A DNA stretch of 64,000 bases from Shigella phage vB_SdyM_006, in the sequence record MK295204. One strand, 5' to 3'. Positions 20,315 through 48,234 of the stretch are shown here, piece by piece. Both the position numbers and the translations under genes were made by a program. The notes below the pieces were generated by a model that did no database searches, had not been told where the DNA came from, and saw only the letters and a list, made by a program, of their open reading frames with translations. Every line of letters begins with the position of its first letter. Within the stretch, counting starts at the first letter, position 1.

Positions 20315-20609
20315 CGTGTACTAATTCCTTTTTAAGATTGTATACGTATTCTTGTGCTGCTGTTTTGCCATCTTCACTACATTTGTTATTTTGACAGTTT
20401 GTTTCTTCCCATTTGGTTCTAATGAAAGCATAAAACTGCTCAGATTCTTCTTTAGAAGGTTCTTTCAATTTACTGTACACAGACATGGCACCTTCAGCGT
20501 ATACATTAAAATATTTATCGTCTGATGCATACGCGCTAGAAAACCCAATGCATAGTGTTAAAACACATGCAATTATGCCAGGTGAAAAGTAATTTTTGAA
20601 CTCGGCCAT
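20307..20609 (-). CDS. Secreted/periplasmic small protein
   Basis: 100 aa; hydrophobic N-terminal segment ending AYASD (signal-peptide-like). Confidence 0.45.
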   Translation of the reverse strand: MAEFKNYFSPGIIACVLTLCIGFSSAYASDDKYFNVYAEGAMSVYSKLKEPSKEESEQFYAFIRTKWEETNCQNNKCSEDGKTAAQEYVYNLKKELVHDE

Positions 20610-20636
20610 AAGGCCTCCATTATTCTAGTAAATCAT

Positions 20637-20849
20637 TTAATGACTTATAATCTTAAATTTATAAATCATCTTGACTTCAGAGAAATAGTTGAGTAGCTTT
20701 TTATACTGCAAATAATCAGCATGACTTTGGGTTTTATCAAACTCAAGCTCTGCCATTTTTAAACACGGCTTAAATTCTCTTATATGAATACCTAGTTCTA
20801 ATGCTGACATATTTCTTAAAGTTTTTTTAGAAAGCATATCAATAGTCAT
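20637..20849 (-). CDS. Hypothetical protein
   Basis: 70-aa ORF after tk. Confidence 0.4.
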   Translation of the reverse strand: MTIDMLSKKTLRNMSALELGIHIREFKPCLKMAELEFDKTQSHADYLQYKKLLNYFSEVKMIYKFKIISH

Positions 20850-20870
20850 AAAATCTCCAGTCAGTTTATA

Positions 20871-21437
20871 TTATTTATTAAATTCAAAATAATGCTTACG
20901 ACAAAATGATTTGTACTTATCATCACCTCCTATTTCAATTGTGTCTCCTTCTTTAACTGCTTTTCCTGAAGGGCTACACTTTGCTGTATGGGTTGCTTTT
21001 CTTCCACACCAACAAACTGCTTTTAGTTCTTCTAATTTATCAGCCCAGGCTAATAAAGCAGCTGAGCCTTCAAACAATTCACCTTTAAAATCAGTTTTTA
21101 ACCCAAAGCACATAACTGGGATCTGATGATTGTCGACAATTTTTGTCAATTGAAGAACCTGAGCCTTTGTTAAAAATTGACATTCATCAATAAGAATAGC
21201 TGCATTGTTTGTACCAATACTTAAATAAAGATTATACAAATCAGTTTCTTTAGAAAATAAAATACACTGTTCTTTTATCCCAACCCTACTAGAAATAACA
21301 CCTTTATCACGAGTATCAATATCGGGTTTAAGAAGTAAACAACTCATTTTTTGCTCTTTATAATTATTATTAACGGATAACAATTTTAAAGATTTACCAG
21401 CTGCCATAGAACCATATACAAAATACAATTGAGCCAT
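20871..21437 (-). CDS. tk: Thymidine kinase
   Basis: P-loop YGSMAAGKS and C-terminal Zn cluster CWCGRKA...CRKH; start trimmed to MAQLYFVYGSM by alignment to the T4 Tk N-terminus. Confidence 0.9.
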   Translation of the reverse strand: MAQLYFVYGSMAAGKSLKLLSVNNNYKEQKMSCLLLKPDIDTRDKGVISSRVGIKEQCILFSKETDLYNLYLSIGTNNAAILIDECQFLTKAQVLQLTKIVDNHQIPVMCFGLKTDFKGELFEGSAALLAWADKLEELKAVCWCGRKATHTAKCSPSGKAVKEGDTIEIGGDDKYKSFCRKHYFEFNK

Positions 21438-21438
21438 A

Positions 21439-21651
21439 TTATTCCTTAATCCATTTAACCCAAAGAACACATTCTGCTTCTTTAGGTTTACCTGTTTTTG
21501 TTTTATAAGTATATACTACTTTGTGTTCTAAAAATTTAATAGGGTCTGTTAAGCCTACCCATGTCTTAGTTTCTCTAATAGATTCATGATGACTCAGAGA
21601 AATAAGGCGTCCTTCTTTTTCCATTTTAAATGGATGCGGTAAATGTGTCAT
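21439..21651 (-). CDS. Hypothetical protein
   Basis: 70-aa ORF immediately upstream of tk. Confidence 0.45.
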   Translation of the reverse strand: MTHLPHPFKMEKEGRLISLSHHESIRETKTWVGLTDPIKFLEHKVVYTYKTKTGKPKEAECVLWVKWIKE

Positions 21652-21767
21652 TCAAATGTACCTCTAAAAGCAAAAAATATACAAATAGCCAAAACTGGAA
21701 AAAGAATAACAGAAACTAAGGTATTAATAAACAATTCGCTAAGTAAAAATTCCATATTTGTTCCAAA

Positions 21768-22208
21768 TTATTTTAATTCTTTAAATCTCATTTTATCATG
21801 ACCATCTATTCGATAAGTCCCGTATTGTCCAACATTATCCACTATATTAACAACAATTTCACCATTGCAAACTCTAAATAGTCTAGCAAGTTTAGTCACT
21901 TCATACTTATTGATAATAAACTGGGGACCAAGAATGTCCCCATGAACTGCTCGATTACACCCAGAAACAAAAAATTTACCATTAGGAATAGATATAGAAT
22001 CAGAATGGTCAATTAAAGAATAAAATGTTGCTCCAAAGACACGTTTTTTAGGTTGCCAAACAATTTCTATATTTGACTTTTTGAGACCTGCATTTTCTAT
22101 CAAAGACCCAGATATTCCGTATAATTTAGGATTTACATATCCTGGGACTTCATACCATGAGAAAGTGCAAGAACTAAAAAATATAAGACATGCTAATAAG
22201 TATTTCAT
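21768..22208 (-). CDS. Secreted protein/lipoprotein of unknown function
   Basis: 146 aa; signal peptide MKYLLACLIFFSSC. Confidence 0.5.
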   Translation of the reverse strand: MKYLLACLIFFSSCTFSWYEVPGYVNPKLYGISGSLIENAGLKKSNIEIVWQPKKRVFGATFYSLIDHSDSISIPNGKFFVSGCNRAVHGDILGPQFIINKYEVTKLARLFRVCNGEIVVNIVDNVGQYGTYRIDGHDKMRFKELK

Positions 22209-22519
22209 TGATTTATCCCTGCAATGTATTTGTCCATTAATGCTCCTCTATATGTTTCACATATTTCGCTATTAGGCGCCTTTTCGCATAAAGAAGATAG
22301 TGAATTTGCTTTATTTTTTAAAGCAGATATTTTGTACTCCGCATCTTTTTTTGATTGTAAAAATCCTTCATGAAAAGAAGTGCTCAATTCAACAGATAAA
22401 ATATTGATACATTCTATATCATCACCACAAAAGTATTTTGCTACATCTATAGATTCTGACATATTATTAGATGCAATCACCGGAAATGTTACTAAAAATA
22501 ACAATAAAAGTTTTTTCAT
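22205..22519 (-). CDS. Secreted cysteine-containing small protein
   Basis: 104 aa; signal peptide MKKLLLLFLVTFPVIAS. Confidence 0.5.
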   Translation of the reverse strand: MKKLLLLFLVTFPVIASNNMSESIDVAKYFCGDDIECINILSVELSTSFHEGFLQSKKDAEYKISALKNKANSLSSLCEKAPNSEICETYRGALMDKYIAGINQ

Positions 22520-38555: not shown

Positions 38556-39232
<677 letters not shown>

Positions 39233-41933: not shown

Positions 41934-41941
41934 TATAAATA
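41934..41941 (+). promoter_or_regulatory. Late promoter TATAAATA for gene 53
   Basis: Exact TATAAATA about 30 nt upstream of the gene 53 ATG. Confidence 0.6.
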
Positions 41942-41971: not shown

Positions 41972-42523
41972 ATGATTTTTTCCTTTTTTGATCCTGTAGA
42001 ATATAGAGGAAAACTAACAACCAATATATTCAGAAACTATAAAGTTTATATAAAAAGAGTTTTATCTAATTATAAACTTAAAACATACTATATTTCTGGC
42101 TCACCGAGACCAGAAGAACTTGCTAATGCATTATATGGTAATCCACAACTATATTGGGTCTTATTAATGATCAATGACAATTATGACCCATTCCATGGCT
42201 GGATTAAAGGACAAGAAGCCTCATATCAGAGCGCTATACAACGCTATGAGAACGCAGGAGGACAACAAGTACTATACCATATAGATAATAATGGTGAACG
42301 TTATTATAACCTAGTAGAAGATCCTGATAACCCAGGCCTTTGGTACGATAAAGGCGATAAAGATATGGAACACTTGCAATATAATGGGCCTTTAGCTGCT
42401 ATAGATATTCTTGAAGATTCAATTCTTAAAAACGAAGAACGACGAGAAATAAAAATAATTGACCCTAAAGAAATTCAATCTTTTATTAGTGCAATTATTA
42501 GAGAGATGGAAAAAACACTATGA
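41972..42523 (+). CDS. 53: Baseplate wedge protein gp53
   Basis: 183 aa; MIFSFFDPVEY ... YYISGSPRPEELANALYGNPQLYWVLLMINDNYDP near-colinear with T4 gp53. Confidence 0.85.
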   Translation: MIFSFFDPVEYRGKLTTNIFRNYKVYIKRVLSNYKLKTYYISGSPRPEELANALYGNPQLYWVLLMINDNYDPFHGWIKGQEASYQSAIQRYENAGGQQVLYHIDNNGERYYNLVEDPDNPGLWYDKGDKDMEHLQYNGPLAAIDILEDSILKNEERREIKIIDPKEIQSFISAIIREMEKTL

Positions 42524-44250
42524 ATATCCAAAATTCTTATATCCAACCATTTTTTGGTGTTGTTGAAGATCGAATGGACCCTAAGAAATTAGGACGTGTC
42601 AGAGTTAGAATATATGGAGATCACCCTTTTTCTAAAACTAAAGGTGACGTGGCTGGTTTAGAAACTGAAGATTTATTATGGTTCCAAGTATTATTACCAG
42701 CAACATCTGCTACTGAATCCGGTGTTGGTAATTCTCCAACTGGTATATTAGAAGGCTCTTCAGTTTTTGGCCTATATTTAGACAAATATAAAACTTCAGG
42801 AATTGTTTTAGGGACTTGGGCTGGGATAAGAACAGAAATGCCTAACTACACAGAAGGTTTTTCCGACCCAAATCAACAGTACCCTACTAAACTTGGGAAT
42901 GATTTAAATGATTTATCTCTAGGTGGAAGAATAGGTAAAGAATCTATTGTTAACGTAATTCAAAATGATAATAGAGAAACTGCACCGAACCCATCAAATA
43001 TACCTGCAGGCGAAGAACCTGAAAATAACAGCCCAGAATTGACAATAGAAAAAATGTTACAACGTGACGAAGGCTTACGTTTACGTTGGTACCCAGATAA
43101 TGGATATGCATCTATTGGTATAGGACATTTAATTAAAGCCCAGAAAACATCAGACCCAGATTTAATTAATAAATGGATTTCAGAACTTGTCGGAAGAAAA
43201 GTAACAAACGGAACCATAACAATGGATGAATGTATGTCCATTTTTAAATCTGATATTAAAAAAGTTAAAGATGGAATAGTTAAGCACCCTACTATTGGTC
43301 CGATCTACAAAAAATGTAATGCTTCTAGGAAAATGGCTTTAGAGAACATGGCATATCAAATGGGACTAGGTGGATTAGCTAAATTTAAAAAAACTTTGAG
43401 ATACATGGAAGAAGAAAAATGGGAAGACGCTTATATAAATCTCCAACAATCACTTTGGTTTAGACAAACTAAAGGACGAGCATCAAGGGTTTCTTTGATT
43501 ATTCGTAATGGTAATTTAGAATCATACGGCGAAAAGACCCCTAGTGCCGCTAGGGCGTTCTCTTTACAAAAGAATATAAACATAGAACCTGAAGATCCTT
43601 TTGTCCCTAGCGACTCTAGGGTTATGTTTGAAGAACCTAAAACAGATTATAATAGCCAATACCCATATAATAAAACCTTTGGAACAGAATCAGGTATGAT
43701 TCAAGAATTTGACGATACACCTGGTGCCGAACGTTATAGACTAACACATACTTCAGGAACATACCAAGAAATTTCTCCAGATGGAAGAAATGTACAAAAA
43801 ATAATTGGGGACAATTATAAAATAGTCCAACAAGACGACCATATATTAGTCCAAGGCGATGTTAAACTTGTTATTGGCGGTAATTCTAATGTTTACATTA
43901 TGGGGTCATTAAACCAAACAATTGATGGAAGTATAAATCAAACTGTTAGAGGAAATGTTGTTCAACATGTAGAAGGTAATGTTAAAGCGACAATAGACCA
44001 AACGGCCGATATTCTTGTTAAAGAAGAAGCTATGATAACAGTTGAAAAAGATTTAACAGTTAATGCAAATCAAAATGCGGAAATTAATGTTAAAGAAAAA
44101 GCCACGGTTAATGCAGAAAATATTTCTGTTAACGCAGAGAAGACTATGAAGTTTAAAGCTGAAGATGTTGATTTTAGTGCAGTTAAAACATTTTCTGTTG
44201 ATTCTGGTGTTCTTACTAAAATTACAGGTGCTAATGTACAGGTGGGATAA
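42520..44250 (+). CDS. 5: Baseplate hub / cell-puncturing device with lysozyme domain gp5
   Basis: 576 aa; N-terminal OB domain (FFGVVEDRMDPKKLGRVRVRIYG), lysozyme domain (LQRDEGLRLRWYPDNGYASIGIGHLI) and C-terminal beta-helix repeats. Confidence 0.9.
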   Translation: MNIQNSYIQPFFGVVEDRMDPKKLGRVRVRIYGDHPFSKTKGDVAGLETEDLLWFQVLLPATSATESGVGNSPTGILEGSSVFGLYLDKYKTSGIVLGTWAGIRTEMPNYTEGFSDPNQQYPTKLGNDLNDLSLGGRIGKESIVNVIQNDNRETAPNPSNIPAGEEPENNSPELTIEKMLQRDEGLRLRWYPDNGYASIGIGHLIKAQKTSDPDLINKWISELVGRKVTNGTITMDECMSIFKSDIKKVKDGIVKHPTIGPIYKKCNASRKMALENMAYQMGLGGLAKFKKTLRYMEEEKWEDAYINLQQSLWFRQTKGRASRVSLIIRNGNLESYGEKTPSAARAFSLQKNINIEPEDPFVPSDSRVMFEEPKTDYNSQYPYNKTFGTESGMIQEFDDTPGAERYRLTHTSGTYQEISPDGRNVQKIIGDNYKIVQQDDHILVQGDVKLVIGGNSNVYIMGSLNQTIDGSINQTVRGNVVQHVEGNVKATIDQTADILVKEEAMITVEKDLTVNANQNAEINVKEKATVNAENISVNAEKTMKFKAEDVDFSAVKTFSVDSGVLTKITGANVQVG

Positions 44251-46313
44251 TGAATTATTACGATAAAATAGATGAAGTTGTCTCAAACTTCGCCCATCCA
44301 TGTGAAGGTGAAGTGCCAGATGGGTTCTATAGACGTGTTAAGTGGGAACTGTATAATCCATCAAAAGAAAATAAAGGCCCAGGAAATGGCGAAGAGTGGG
44401 ACACAGAGATAATTAAAATAGGGACTAGATTATACGATCAAAACCCTTTTGGGCATAAATCTGAAGAATTTCCAGAACCGCCAGTAGAAGGTGAAGGAGA
44501 AAAATGTAAATTCTGGTCTAAAAAAATAGGTGTTTGTTTTACAACTCAAAAAGAATTATCTGATTATGTAGAATCTATTGGGTCCAAACTTTTACCTGGT
44601 AATGATTGGTATGGTGCGGATTTATCAAAATCACATTTATTTAAAACAGCAAATGAATATAACATGTATCGTATAGAAAATGCCGGCGGGACTTGGACTA
44701 AATTAGGTCCTTCTATAGATAAACGAACTATGTTAATGGTTGATAAAGATTATAATATTTTAATTAATTATGATGGGGTTGAAGGGTCTAGGTCTGCTTA
44801 CTTAAAACACTATGAAGATAAACCTTGTACTTATGTTGGTATTCGCTTAAATCTTGATATTGATTTAAGTGTCCCGGGTATACCAGAATCAGAACCACCT
44901 ACAATAGGAAGTTTACCACCAGAATTACCAGCATTAATATTTGCTGCTAGAAGTTTACCCGCAATAGGTTGTATTCCATTTAAGGCTAAATTTCCTTATA
45001 ATGGGTTATCACAAGCAATAGTTGAAGCATGGAATGAATCAAGGCGTTCATTTAAATTAATGTGGGCCAATATTCCAGGACTACCTGAAGGTGAAGGTTC
45101 AATTTGGAGTACAATGTATTCTGGCGTGTCTATTGCTATGGAAGAACTTGGTAATGCGGCTTTAAGTATGTGCCAATACGTGCAACAAATGGCATGGAAC
45201 GCATTTAAAGAAATTATTTCGCAGGCTCTTAATATAGTTGGTGCTGGTTGGGATTTATTAAAATCATTTATCCCTAAAGTTACTATTCTTGGAATAACTT
45301 TTGATATTGAAGATATTTGTACTTCTGGTGATGGTTTACAAAAATTAAAAGATGCTTTTTCTAATTTTGATACAGAAAAAATAATAGAAAGTATATATGC
45401 ATTTATTGGAAGTGCTTACGAATATTCTGTAGAATATGTAAAAGTATTTTCTCGTGACTTAATAGATGCGTTAACAGATTTATATGATTATTTGTGGTAT
45501 GTGTTGATGACAGCAGGTGTTGCTTTATGTAAGACCCTTGTTAATTTAGCAGAAATCTGGTCTATCCCACCATGGATTCCAAACCCTTTATGGAATGTAG
45601 TTATTGCTGTAAAAGAGTTAATGAAACAAATAGAACCTTTAGATATGATTCTTAAAGGTGGATTTCCTGGTTTTACGGCATCAGATTTGTATTATATGGT
45701 TGAACGAGAAGTTAAAAAAGTTATAGACGAAACTTATGCAAAAATAGAATCATTTAAAAACCAAGCCATAGCTTTATGGGAACAAGTAAAAGAAGCTAAA
45801 GATAATTGGCAGCGAGAATCAATAGGATTTAAACAATATCTTAAAGGCATGTATGGTGCTGTAACTGAAGAGCTCACAAAACAAAAAGAAGCCTTAGTTA
45901 AACAGGCTAAAGATATATACGAATCATTATTGGCAAAATATGAAGCATTAAATATAAATATAGATACACTCAAAGCTTCTGTTTCTAATGTCTTAGAACT
46001 TGCATTAAATGAATTAAGACAGCTTCCTTTAGTGGCTCAAATAGAACAACTTTTATCATTAATAGGTTCATCTCTAGATGAAATGATAACAACTATTAAA
46101 AATGGTATAACTGGCGCACAAACGTTATACAAAAATTTTACAGATGGAAGCAGATCATTAAAAGATATATGTAAGTACATATTCAGCCAAATATCTACAT
46201 TATCATTGAGTAAAGTAACACAATGGATTAATAAATTATTGAGCATATTTGGATTAGAAATAAAGTTTCCTGAACTAGAATTGTGTATACCATACGTAAA
46301 ATACGAGGAATAA
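44250..46313 (+). CDS. Large protein of unknown function between gene 5 and gene 6
   Basis: 687-aa uninterrupted ORF, start overlaps gp5 stop (TAATG); cysteine-containing N-terminal region, hydrophobic central segments, coiled-coil C-terminus; no PAAR-like motif seen. Confidence 0.7.
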   Translation: MNYYDKIDEVVSNFAHPCEGEVPDGFYRRVKWELYNPSKENKGPGNGEEWDTEIIKIGTRLYDQNPFGHKSEEFPEPPVEGEGEKCKFWSKKIGVCFTTQKELSDYVESIGSKLLPGNDWYGADLSKSHLFKTANEYNMYRIENAGGTWTKLGPSIDKRTMLMVDKDYNILINYDGVEGSRSAYLKHYEDKPCTYVGIRLNLDIDLSVPGIPESEPPTIGSLPPELPALIFAARSLPAIGCIPFKAKFPYNGLSQAIVEAWNESRRSFKLMWANIPGLPEGEGSIWSTMYSGVSIAMEELGNAALSMCQYVQQMAWNAFKEIISQALNIVGAGWDLLKSFIPKVTILGITFDIEDICTSGDGLQKLKDAFSNFDTEKIIESIYAFIGSAYEYSVEYVKVFSRDLIDALTDLYDYLWYVLMTAGVALCKTLVNLAEIWSIPPWIPNPLWNVVIAVKELMKQIEPLDMILKGGFPGFTASDLYYMVEREVKKVIDETYAKIESFKNQAIALWEQVKEAKDNWQRESIGFKQYLKGMYGAVTEELTKQKEALVKQAKDIYESLLAKYEALNINIDTLKASVSNVLELALNELRQLPLVAQIEQLLSLIGSSLDEMITTIKNGITGAQTLYKNFTDGSRSLKDICKYIFSQISTLSLSKVTQWINKLLSIFGLEIKFPELELCIPYVKYEE

Positions 46314-46314
46314 A

Positions 46315-48234
46315 ATGGATTTAATTAAGAAACAAATAAACAGTATTCCTGAAGTATACACTTCAGCTACTTTTGACGAAATAAAAAATGATTGGATTAA
46401 CTGGTTAAGAGGGCAAGATGAATTTAAAGACTATGATTTTAAAGGTTCTAGATTAAATGTTCTTTTAGATTTATTATCTTATAATGTCCTTTATATCCAA
46501 CAATTTAGTAATTCTGCTTTATATGAATCGTTTATAAGAACAGCTTCTTTAAGGTCTTCAGTTGTTCAGGCTGCACAAGACATGGGATATTTTCCATCTT
46601 CTATGACTGCCGCTGAATGTTCTATAATGTTAGAATGTACGCATAAATTAAAACCACAAAGTATTAAAATCCCAAGAGGTACTAAATTTTTAGCTTCATC
46701 TAAAGATGGCCCAACTCAGCCTTATAACTTTGTGGTAAAAGAAGACGTTAACGTTGTAAAAAGTAAAGACGACAAATATTACCCTATAATTAACTTAGTC
46801 CAAGGGCGTGTTGTTAGAACTGAATTAGAATACGACCCAAATCAACAGATTTTGATTCGTGATAAATTTATGGATAGACACACAGTTAGGGTTATGGTTA
46901 ATGGTGTTAAATGGGAAGACTGGACAGAAAAATCAATTGTTAATATCTCCGGAACAAGCCATGTGTTTTATATGAGAGAAACAATTGACGAATACACCGA
47001 ACTATTTTTTGGTGAAGGCCAAGCAGATTATTCTATTGTTGATGGAAGTTTACAAAGTAATTATATTGGTGGGTTAAAACCTGTTGCTGGAAGTAATATT
47101 GTAATTGAATATATTAGAACAGATGGCGGCAAAGCTAATGGGTCTATTAACTTTAGCTATGCTGATACATTGCAATACGTTTCTGTTGTTAATATAATAG
47201 AAAATTATGATGAAACAGAAGATTATATTGGCGCTTTTGGTGGCGGTGATCCTGAAGATATCGAAAGAATTCGTGAACTTGGCCCTATAAAACGAGAATC
47301 TCAACGCCGTTGTGTAACAGCAACAGATTATGAGTCATTCGTTTCAGAAAGATTTGGGCCTATTGTCCAGGCTGTTCAATGTTTTACAGATAGAGATAAA
47401 CCTGGTTATGCATTTATTGCTATAAAGCCAAAAGAAGGTTTAAGATTATCATCTGTGCAAAGAGAAGATATTCAGAATTACCTTAAAGAATACAATATTT
47501 CTACCATAACACCTAGTATTATGTCTCCTAATTATATGTTCTTAAAACATAAAGTTAAAGTTACATATTCTATGAACAAACTTTCTGAATCTGAGCAATG
47601 GTTAAAAGGTAAAATCATTGACCAAATTGACACATATTATAAAGATGAAGTAGAAATATTTAACAAAAGTTTTCATAAATCTAAAATGTTAACTTATGTT
47701 GATGATGCTGATATTTCTATATTAGGTTCTTCTGCCGAAATAACAATGGTTAGAGAACTAGAAAATTTCTTTAAAACTCCTATGTCTGGTGTAAAATATA
47801 ATAATAAAATATTACCACGTGGTCTTATTAGTAATGTATTTGAATACACAGTTAATGATGAGCTATCGTATGGTGTTAGATTAGCTTCAACTGAGCCTAA
47901 AGGCGATTTAAAAGAAGGTAAAATTGTTATAGGTCCATTTAGACAAGGAGATATTAAAATAAGTCCTTATTTGGGAACTGATTTTGAAAAATTAAAAACA
48001 ACAGATACAAGAAATAGTTATTTTGTTGTTGGTAAAATAATCCATGAAGAGGATTATATCTATTGGGACCTTGGACAATTAAATGTGACAAGTGATAAAT
48101 TTTTAGTCCCGAGTATAGAATTATACGGAACTCCAGGAGATTCTAATATCTTTACAAAAGATGGGTCATTAATTGTATTTGAAAATAATTTAAGACCCGA
48201 ATACACAGAAATTATTATGGAGCCTATAGCTTAA
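46315..48234 (+). CDS. 6: Baseplate wedge protein gp6
   Basis: 639 aa (T4 gp6 is 660 aa); synteny. Confidence 0.8.
   Translation: MDLIKKQINSIPEVYTSATFDEIKNDWINWLRGQDEFKDYDFKGSRLNVLLDLLSYNVLYIQQFSNSALYESFIRTASLRSSVVQAAQDMGYFPSSMTAAECSIMLECTHKLKPQSIKIPRGTKFLASSKDGPTQPYNFVVKEDVNVVKSKDDKYYPIINLVQGRVVRTELEYDPNQQILIRDKFMDRHTVRVMVNGVKWEDWTEKSIVNISGTSHVFYMRETIDEYTELFFGEGQADYSIVDGSLQSNYIGGLKPVAGSNIVIEYIRTDGGKANGSINFSYADTLQYVSVVNIIENYDETEDYIGAFGGGDPEDIERIRELGPIKRESQRRCVTATDYESFVSERFGPIVQAVQCFTDRDKPGYAFIAIKPKEGLRLSSVQREDIQNYLKEYNISTITPSIMSPNYMFLKHKVKVTYSMNKLSESEQWLKGKIIDQIDTYYKDEVEIFNKSFHKSKMLTYVDDADISILGSSAEITMVRELENFFKTPMSGVKYNNKILPRGLISNVFEYTVNDELSYGVRLASTEPKGDLKEGKIVIGPFRQGDIKISPYLGTDFEKLKTTDTRNSYFVVGKIIHEEDYIYWDLGQLNVTSDKFLVPSIELYGTPGDSNIFTKDGSLIVFENNLRPEYTEIIMEPIA

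Follow-up and report, generated by a model that had tools for sequence, protein, structure and literature searches.

A 687-residue protein between genes 5 and 6 of Shigella phage vB_SdyM_006 is a new member of a family proposed to form a non-PAAR spike tip

What sits at the tip of the central spike when a T4-like phage has no PAAR gene? In T4, the interval between gene 5, which encodes the spike protein, and gene 6, which encodes a baseplate wedge protein, holds 5.1, segC, 5.3 and 5.4, the last being the PAAR gene. We analysed a 64,000-nucleotide (nt) stretch of DNA from Shigella phage vB_SdyM_006 (record MK295204; referred to here as the window), in which the same interval is filled by a single open reading frame (ORF), called X in the following, that spans 44250..46313 on the + strand, starts with ATG and codes for 687 residues. 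The original prediction for this locus, made from the letters of the sequence, had pointed out that the T4 interval carries small 5.x genes including the PAAR gene, and that here one 687-residue ORF fills the slot and is coupled to gp5 by a TAATG overlap. Both observations were borne out. The stop codon of gp5 (TAA, 44248-44250) overlaps the start codon of X (ATG, 44250-44252) as TAATG, and a Shine-Dalgarno sequence, AGGTGGG, is found 4 nt upstream, at 44240-44246. The features that bear directly on X are the following.

42520..44250, + strand: gp5 central spike, with OB domain, lysozyme domain and triple-stranded beta-helix (PHROG 430 and Pfam)
44005..44247, + strand: last 81 residues of gp5, the 'X-type' beta-helix tip (tblastn, alignment)
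44240..44252, + strand: Shine-Dalgarno sequence AGGTGGG and TAATG stop/start overlap (read from the sequence)
44250..46313, + strand: X, ortholog of RB43 orf205w and putative non-PAAR spike-tip protein, 687 residues (BLASTP, PHROG, literature)

We propose that X is a spike-tip protein that sits on a variant gp5 beta-helix and replaces gp5.4, a reading that we consider probable. In a BLASTP comparison, X was 42% identical over its full length (687/690 residues, E = 0) to the 690-residue protein encoded between gp5 and gp6 of phage RB43, and is therefore the ortholog of RB43 orf205w. A preprint puts this protein forward as a non-PAAR spike tip of a unique kind (Mattenberger, Leiman, Belin et al., bioRxiv 2025; PMC12407873). 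According to the same study, RB43, RB16 and Lw1 lack an ortholog of gene 5.4, and their 5.1-5.4 locus holds orf205w, a protein of ~690 residues in which residues 1-220 are mixed helix and strand and the remainder is helical (PMC12407873). The cryo-electron microscopy map of the RB43 baseplate, at 17.7 Å, differed from that of T4 only in a larger body at the tip of the spike; the orf205w model could be fitted into this extra density, and the authors regarded orf205w as 'possibly' the tip (PMC12407873). A hub- or spike-associated protein in place of the 5.x and PAAR genes, as had been suggested for the window, agrees with this density and with the linkage of X to the gp5 tip that is described below.

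X and orf205w share their length (687 versus 690 residues), the slot between gp5 and gp6, a genome without gene 5.4 and the domain plan of an N-terminal alpha/beta part followed by helices; RB43 gp5 also has the same variant C-terminus. They differ in their phages, a Pseudotevenvirus on E. coli in the case of orf205w and a Bragavirus on Proteus in the case of X, and the X protein of the window, known here from sequence alone, shares more identity with its Dhakavirus and Gaprivervirus counterparts (59%) than with that of RB43. Thus, X is real and unusual, but its tip role was first proposed for the RB43 copy and is not new; X is a new member, from Bragavirus, of the kind of protein described in the 2025 preprint, the role of which is still unproven.

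A protein that replaces gp5.4 should be found where gp5.4 is missing. Searched by tblastn, T4 gp5.4 had no match in the 64-kb window, none in the complete genome of Proteus phage phiP4-3 (best E 3.4) and none in the complete genome of phage Bp7 (best E 0.47; T4 control, 8.9e-57). Phage phiP4-3, a Bragavirus, is the nearest relative of the window (protein identity 98.4% for X and 98.6% for gp6). A hidden Markov model (HMM) of the gp5.4 family likewise had no match among the six-frame ORFs of the whole phiP4-3 genome (best E 1.7), and the Pfam PAAR_motif matched 0 of 173 small phiP4-3 ORFs, a search that singleton DUF4280 and DUF4150 matches could have escaped; the PAAR_motif control on T4 gp5.4 gave 9.4e-10 in the same runs. 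In X itself, no Pfam match to PAAR_motif was obtained even at E up to 1. Collectively, the negative Pfam, tblastn and HMM results speak against a PAAR protein hidden in X or elsewhere in the window, phiP4-3 or Bp7. The earlier remark that no PAAR-like ORF lies nearby therefore held for the window, and the absence of gp5.4 extends to the whole of the phiP4-3 and Bp7 genomes. That Bragavirus and Dhakavirus genomes, too, appear by these searches to be without gene 5.4 is new here.

The distribution of the two genes points in the same direction. T4 gp5.4 matched 1422 phage records, and in a sample of 60 records spread across them none (0/60) came from a genus that bears X. Judged by these matches, X and gp5.4 appear to be mutually exclusive and complementary in the genomes examined. 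A sum test, in which the carriers of gp5.4 and the carriers of X would add up to all gp6 carriers, was not clean, because gp6-like proteins are also present in other myovirus families (2389 records). T4 gp5.4 and the PAAR tips of type VI secretion systems (T6SS; PF05488; PDB 4KU0) resemble X in the slot that they occupy, downstream of gp5 and upstream of gp6, and in their proposed site, the blunt end of a trimeric beta-helical spike. In contrast, there is no sequence match between them and X, which is seven times larger than the 97-residue gp5.4. PAAR forms a cone of three beta-hairpins with a 3-His-1-Cys metal site, whereas X is predicted to be alpha/beta plus helical; it has only four histidines, none of them invariant, and no 3-His-1-Cys site.

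A further link between X and the spike lies in gp5 itself. The tip of gp5 (last 85 residues) was only 26-31% identical to T4, compared with 50-63% for the rest of the protein. When the last 81 gp5 residues of the window were used in tblastn, they matched 215 phage records, whose breakdown by organism and by host equalled that of X, and did not match T4-type gp5 C-termini. Bp7 (Dhakavirus) carries the junction within its beta-helix. As far as about column 550 of a gp5 alignment, blocks of 50 columns of Bp7 gp5 were 54-74% identical to T4; beyond it, identity to T4 fell to 10% and identity to the window rose to 42%. The proteins on either side behaved as follows.

Bp7 gp5 without its last 85 residues: 63% identical to T4, 46% to the window
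Bp7 gp5, last 85 residues: 26% identical to T4, 55% to the window
Bp7 X: absent from T4, 59% identical to the window
Bp7 gp6: 70% identical to T4, 60% to the window

In Bp7, tip and X are nearest to the window and their flanks are nearest to T4, from which we conclude that the tip and X were inherited as one cassette. The T4-type helix end together with 5.1-5.4 would behave as the alternative cassette. The linkage of X with the gp5 tip variant in 215 records and the cassette junction inside the Bp7 beta-helix are both new here. Judged by sequence, such co-inheritance is as expected for two proteins that touch, and fibre tips show the same relation to the adhesins or chaperones encoded downstream of them. 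The T2-type gp38 adhesin is a case in point: it is a downstream-encoded monomer that caps a trimeric tip (gp37) and is swapped with the C-terminus of the upstream gene, although the proteins are other ones and the organelle is the long tail fibre rather than the central spike. The preprint likens gp5.4 to a gp38-type adhesin (PMC12407873).

X belongs to a gp5-linked family that is carried by a part of the enterobacterial T4-like phages, without gene 5.4 in those that were checked. By tblastn, 215 of 50,697 phage records matched X over its full length (by organism name, Klebsiella 113, Escherichia 27, Enterobacter 20, Cronobacter 18, Citrobacter 13, Proteus 7 and others 17), and these records annotate it nearly throughout as 'hypothetical protein'. 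Among 5.8 billion proteins, 54 full-length homologs with at least 42% identity were found, and X corresponded to an exact PHROG family (phrog_5296, E = 0, aligned 1-685 of 685); on these two grounds, X is no chance ORF. A profile search of 1.84 billion representatives returned only 8 full-length clusters and fragments, the other matches being coiled-coil noise, and the family would thus seem to be small and sharply bounded. RB43 (Pseudotevenvirus), KP15 (Slopekvirus), phiP4-3 and Bp7 all keep the order gp53-gp5-X-gp6, the spacing from gp5 to X being -1 to 4 nt. Even in the two most divergent members (metagenomes, ~30% identity), X still begins 4-6 nt after gp5.

Comparison of the 5-to-6 interval across T4-like genomes thus placed X widely at this locus. 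The original prediction had named clear homology to a widespread protein at this position as evidence against it; the wide presence was found (215 records) and, together with the role already proposed, lowers the novelty of X, while the interpretation is not contradicted.

The loci of these two metagenomic members of ~30% identity depart from the usual arrangement. On JGI metagenome contig Ga0620835_007198 (L010:219-1388), gp5 has 389 residues and consists of OB domain and beta-helix without the lysozyme domain; a divergent X of 743 residues starts 4 nt after this short gp5. On ENA contig BOEU19-1 scaffold_330 (L009:2542-2967), from a divergent T4-like phage, gp25 lies between X and gp6. In Bp7 and phiP4-3, gp25 is found elsewhere, and in the phages examined gp6 directly follows X.

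To describe the protein, we used an AlphaFold2 model of the X monomer, built from a 42-sequence alignment (mean predicted local distance difference test score, pLDDT, 87; predicted template modelling score, pTM, 0.79). It divides X as follows.

44250..44864, + strand: X residues 1-205, autonomous alpha/beta N-terminal domain without structural relative
44964..44990, + strand: X residues 239-247, long beta-strand with C241 (model; C-terminal truncation; co-loss)
44997..46259, + strand: X residues ~250-670, all-helical domain with long hairpins
45555..45593, + strand: X residues 436-448, IWSIPPWIPNPLW, near-invariant Trp/Pro turn that ends helix 400-437, which is moderately hydrophobic (alignment)
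46272..46301, + strand: X residues 675-684, C-terminal beta-strand with C679 that returns to the N-terminal part (model; co-loss)

The model contains strands and helices up to ~270 and helices only in ~296-666, with individual helices of up to 55 residues. Those near the C-terminus (477-531, 540-577 and 633-666) support the long heptad-like C-terminus that had been recognized beforehand. Residues 1-205 reached a pLDDT of ~90 when predicted alone, while 205-295 need the rest of the protein. Conservation is highest in segments 121-140, 321-340, 461-480 and 641-660 and in the Trp/Pro turn 436-448, and lowest in the hairpin 481-620. Within the turn, W437, P440, P441, P444, N445 and P446 are invariant in the 42 sequences, and P441, N445 and P446 are so even in members of 30% identity. 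Strands 239-247 and 675-684, the two longest of X, probably pair and join the ends of the chain; strand 239-247 was disordered when the C-terminus was absent from the model. The 42 close homologs all share four cysteines (C18, C193, C241 and C679). Three divergent lineages have jointly lost C241 and C679 and kept C18 and C193, which disfavours a single Cys4 metal site and makes two separate cysteine pairs, either disulfides or metal ligands, more likely. A sequence search of the PDB with X gave noise only, and Foldseek matches in the PDB all had an E of 0.19 or more; with no informative fold match and no PAAR, X is neither a PAAR protein nor a known tip fold. We also considered and rejected T4 gp5.1 as a homolog of the N-terminal domain (hhalign probability 0.2%).

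The central stretches of X had been called strongly hydrophobic, which proved to be overstated. The best 19-residue Kyte-Doolittle window scored 1.56 (residues 224-244) and the central stretch 413-437 scored 1.55, both just under the classical transmembrane threshold of 1.6, and in the model 413-437 is a buried helix of the helical bundle. Sequence analysis of X revealed neither a signal peptide nor a clear membrane segment. The earlier suggestion that X may be membrane-active draws on this hydropathy, which is only moderate. It is conceivable from the model that X interacts with a membrane or a partner through its amphipathic bundle and the Trp/Pro turn. Taken further, X might be cargo of the tip, the bundle of which opens once past the outer membrane, so that the Trp/Pro turn 436-448 engages the membrane or a periplasmic partner and helps to make a path for the tube and the DNA. 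X would then be to a phage what tip-borne effectors are to the T6SS or translocators to type III secretion systems (T3SS), and would have a fold without known relative. The resemblance of X to T3SS translocators and to alpha-helical pore-forming toxins is the generic, non-specific similarity of helical hairpins, and we consider such a cargo function possible but doubtful.

As a spike tip, X would be made from the late 53-5-X-6 transcript in translational coupling with gp5, and would dock, probably as one molecule, where the trimeric gp5 beta-helix ends in a flat C-terminal face; in X-bearing phages this helix is a distinct and slightly longer variant. The X-type tip of gp5 (44005..44247) is the presumed docking platform. 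X would hold there the place that the 97-residue PAAR protein gp5.4 has in T4, and would be built into the baseplate hub along with the spike. Upon sheath contraction, X would be driven through the outer membrane first of all virion parts, and would be released into the periplasm together with the spike; the P2 spike has been shown to reach the periplasm (PMC12407873). The stoichiometry of X, its gp5-binding face and its action after penetration are what we infer within this scheme.

Several points weigh against a spike tip. A body of 76 kDa is hard to square with a tip that serves for sharpening. The RB43 map has a resolution of only 17.7 Å and was obtained with imposed C6 symmetry, its authors say 'possibly', production of orf205w in complex with a fragment of the gp5 beta-helix was unsuccessful, and the AlphaFold confidence in that study was low (PMC12407873). 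Our own models of X are monomeric only and contain no interface to gp5, and the identity of the two 215-record sets was deduced from equal totals and breakdowns, not from accession lists. The virion proteome of Morganella phage MP1 lists gp6, gp7 and gp29 and skips from gp141, the DNA end protector, to gp147 (gp6), which leaves out the expected gp5/X interval; however, gp5 is missing as well, so that the list is incomplete and the absence of X carries little weight. For X-bearing phages other than MP1, our literature search found no virion mass spectrometry, the Slopekvirus and Pseudotevenvirus papers being without it, and the virion proteome available for Jiaodavirus concerns gp5.4-type phages. 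Lastly, the linkage between X and the gp5 tip would be equally expected of an assembly chaperone.

The last point leads to the view of X as an assembly factor that folds or caps the variant gp5 helix end and is absent from the finished virion, the RB43 density then being another protein. T4 gp38 and gp57A are assembly factors for fibres, and a downstream gene that co-varies with the C-terminus of the upstream gene is the classic signature of a tail-fibre chaperone, which the tip-X cassette fits. X is missing from the MP1 virion proteome, and the recombinant complex was not obtained (PMC12407873), as this view would have it. However, X with its 687 residues is several times the size of known fibre chaperones, the absence of gp5 from the MP1 list takes most of the weight from that of X, and the RB43 virion has an extra tip body in a genome without another candidate tip gene (PMC12407873). 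On balance we regard an assembly factor as unlikely, and a spike tip remains the reading that we favour.

Some public records would suggest a different function. Three Klebsiella phage records (PQ657805.1, PQ657798.1 and PP889462.1, of phages Roth41, Roth26 and phi1_146007) label X 'tail length tape measure protein'; the genus of these phages keeps gp29. X does resemble phage tape measures (PF10145 and related PHROGs) in its long amphipathic helices. Weak matches to PHROG tape measures cover residues ~250-660 (E 5.6e-9 to 3e-3), and two remote profile matches, P0122 and P0125, are genuine tape measures (PhageMin_Tail), whose helices resemble those of apolipoproteins. Yet the matches are confined to amphipathic helices of low conservation and stay below every Pfam cut-off, the hallmark domain is missing in X, and hhalign of X against the phage's own gp29 gave a probability of 0.3%. 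Moreover, a gp29 of T4 length is present in its normal place, beside gp27, gp28 and gp48 in phiP4-3, and also in Bp7, while X is encoded within the spike operon and varies together with the gp5 tip rather than with the length of the tail. With no Pfam tape-measure family, no homology to gp29 and a gp29 already present, we rejected the identity of X as the tape measure; that X is carried inside the tube or hub as an ejected 'pilot' or as a protein resembling a tape measure is very unlikely.

Least probable is a late non-structural protein (for lysis timing, exclusion or host takeover) in a permissive slot, for although the T4 interval tolerates unrelated cargo (segC and the ORFans 5.1 and 5.3) and X has no functional family assignment, its position right after gp5 is strictly kept down to 30% identity, it is translationally coupled to gp5 and linked to the gp5 tip variant, it is without signal peptide or clear membrane segment, and among the genomes examined X and gp5.4 have complementary distributions.

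The neighbourhood of X is that of a T4-like baseplate operon, and includes the following features.

41934..41941, + strand: T4-type late promoter box TATAAATA, 30 nt 5′ of gp53 (pattern search)
41972..42523, + strand: gp53 baseplate wedge (Pfam Phage_gp53, E 2.3e-67)
46315..48234, + strand: gp6 baseplate wedge (five Pfam gp6 domains, E down to 8.5e-43)

Pfam matches of gp5 were Gp5_OB (4.4e-46), Phage_lysozyme and Gp5_trimer_C. The stop codon of X and the start of gp6 are separated by a gap of 2 nt. Two more ORFs, of 1035 and 335 residues, follow 3′ of gp6 and are, by size and position only, taken to be gp7 and gp8. The TATAAATA box at 41934 is likely to be the start of a 53-5-X-6-7-8 late transcript. 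The window has 10 copies of the motif where 18 are expected, which is no enrichment, and the assignment therefore rests on position only. A second box of this kind is located inside X (45953-45960, + strand), 355 nt upstream of gp6, and could be an internal gp6 promoter or a chance match.

Further observations concern other genes of these phages. A 153-residue ORF of the window (38556-39017, - strand) encodes a T4 57B-type Acb1 anti-CBASS phosphodiesterase (Pfam PF23474, E 1.2e-52; CBASS, cyclic-oligonucleotide-based antiphage signalling system), the ortholog of which is named 'RNA ligase' in the phiP4-3 RefSeq record. In phiP4-3, one of the small ORFs (65-200 residues) matches Pfam YadA_anchor (E 2e-12), the outer-membrane anchor of trimeric autotransporters and unexpected in a phage; four candidate ORFs examined singly gave no match. 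In the same record (20481-22387), the annotation splits thymidylate synthase into two parts on either side of a homing endonuclease gene, the arrangement of a td gene that is interrupted by an intron.

One consequence is practical: the 'tape measure' labels of X in public records should be corrected. In the usual view, nearly all contractile tails and T6SS terminate in a PAAR cone or in an apex domain fused to the spike. A tip of 76 kDa and unrelated fold, swapped together with the last turns of the spike, would mean that the membrane-attacking end is modular, and such a tip may deliver a function besides sharpness. T4 gp5.4 becomes essential on hosts with altered lipopolysaccharide (LPS). The X family is found in phages of Klebsiella, Enterobacter, Cronobacter, Proteus and E. 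coli, many of which have been characterised as therapy candidates, so that a role of X in penetration could bear on host range, for example on hosts with altered LPS.

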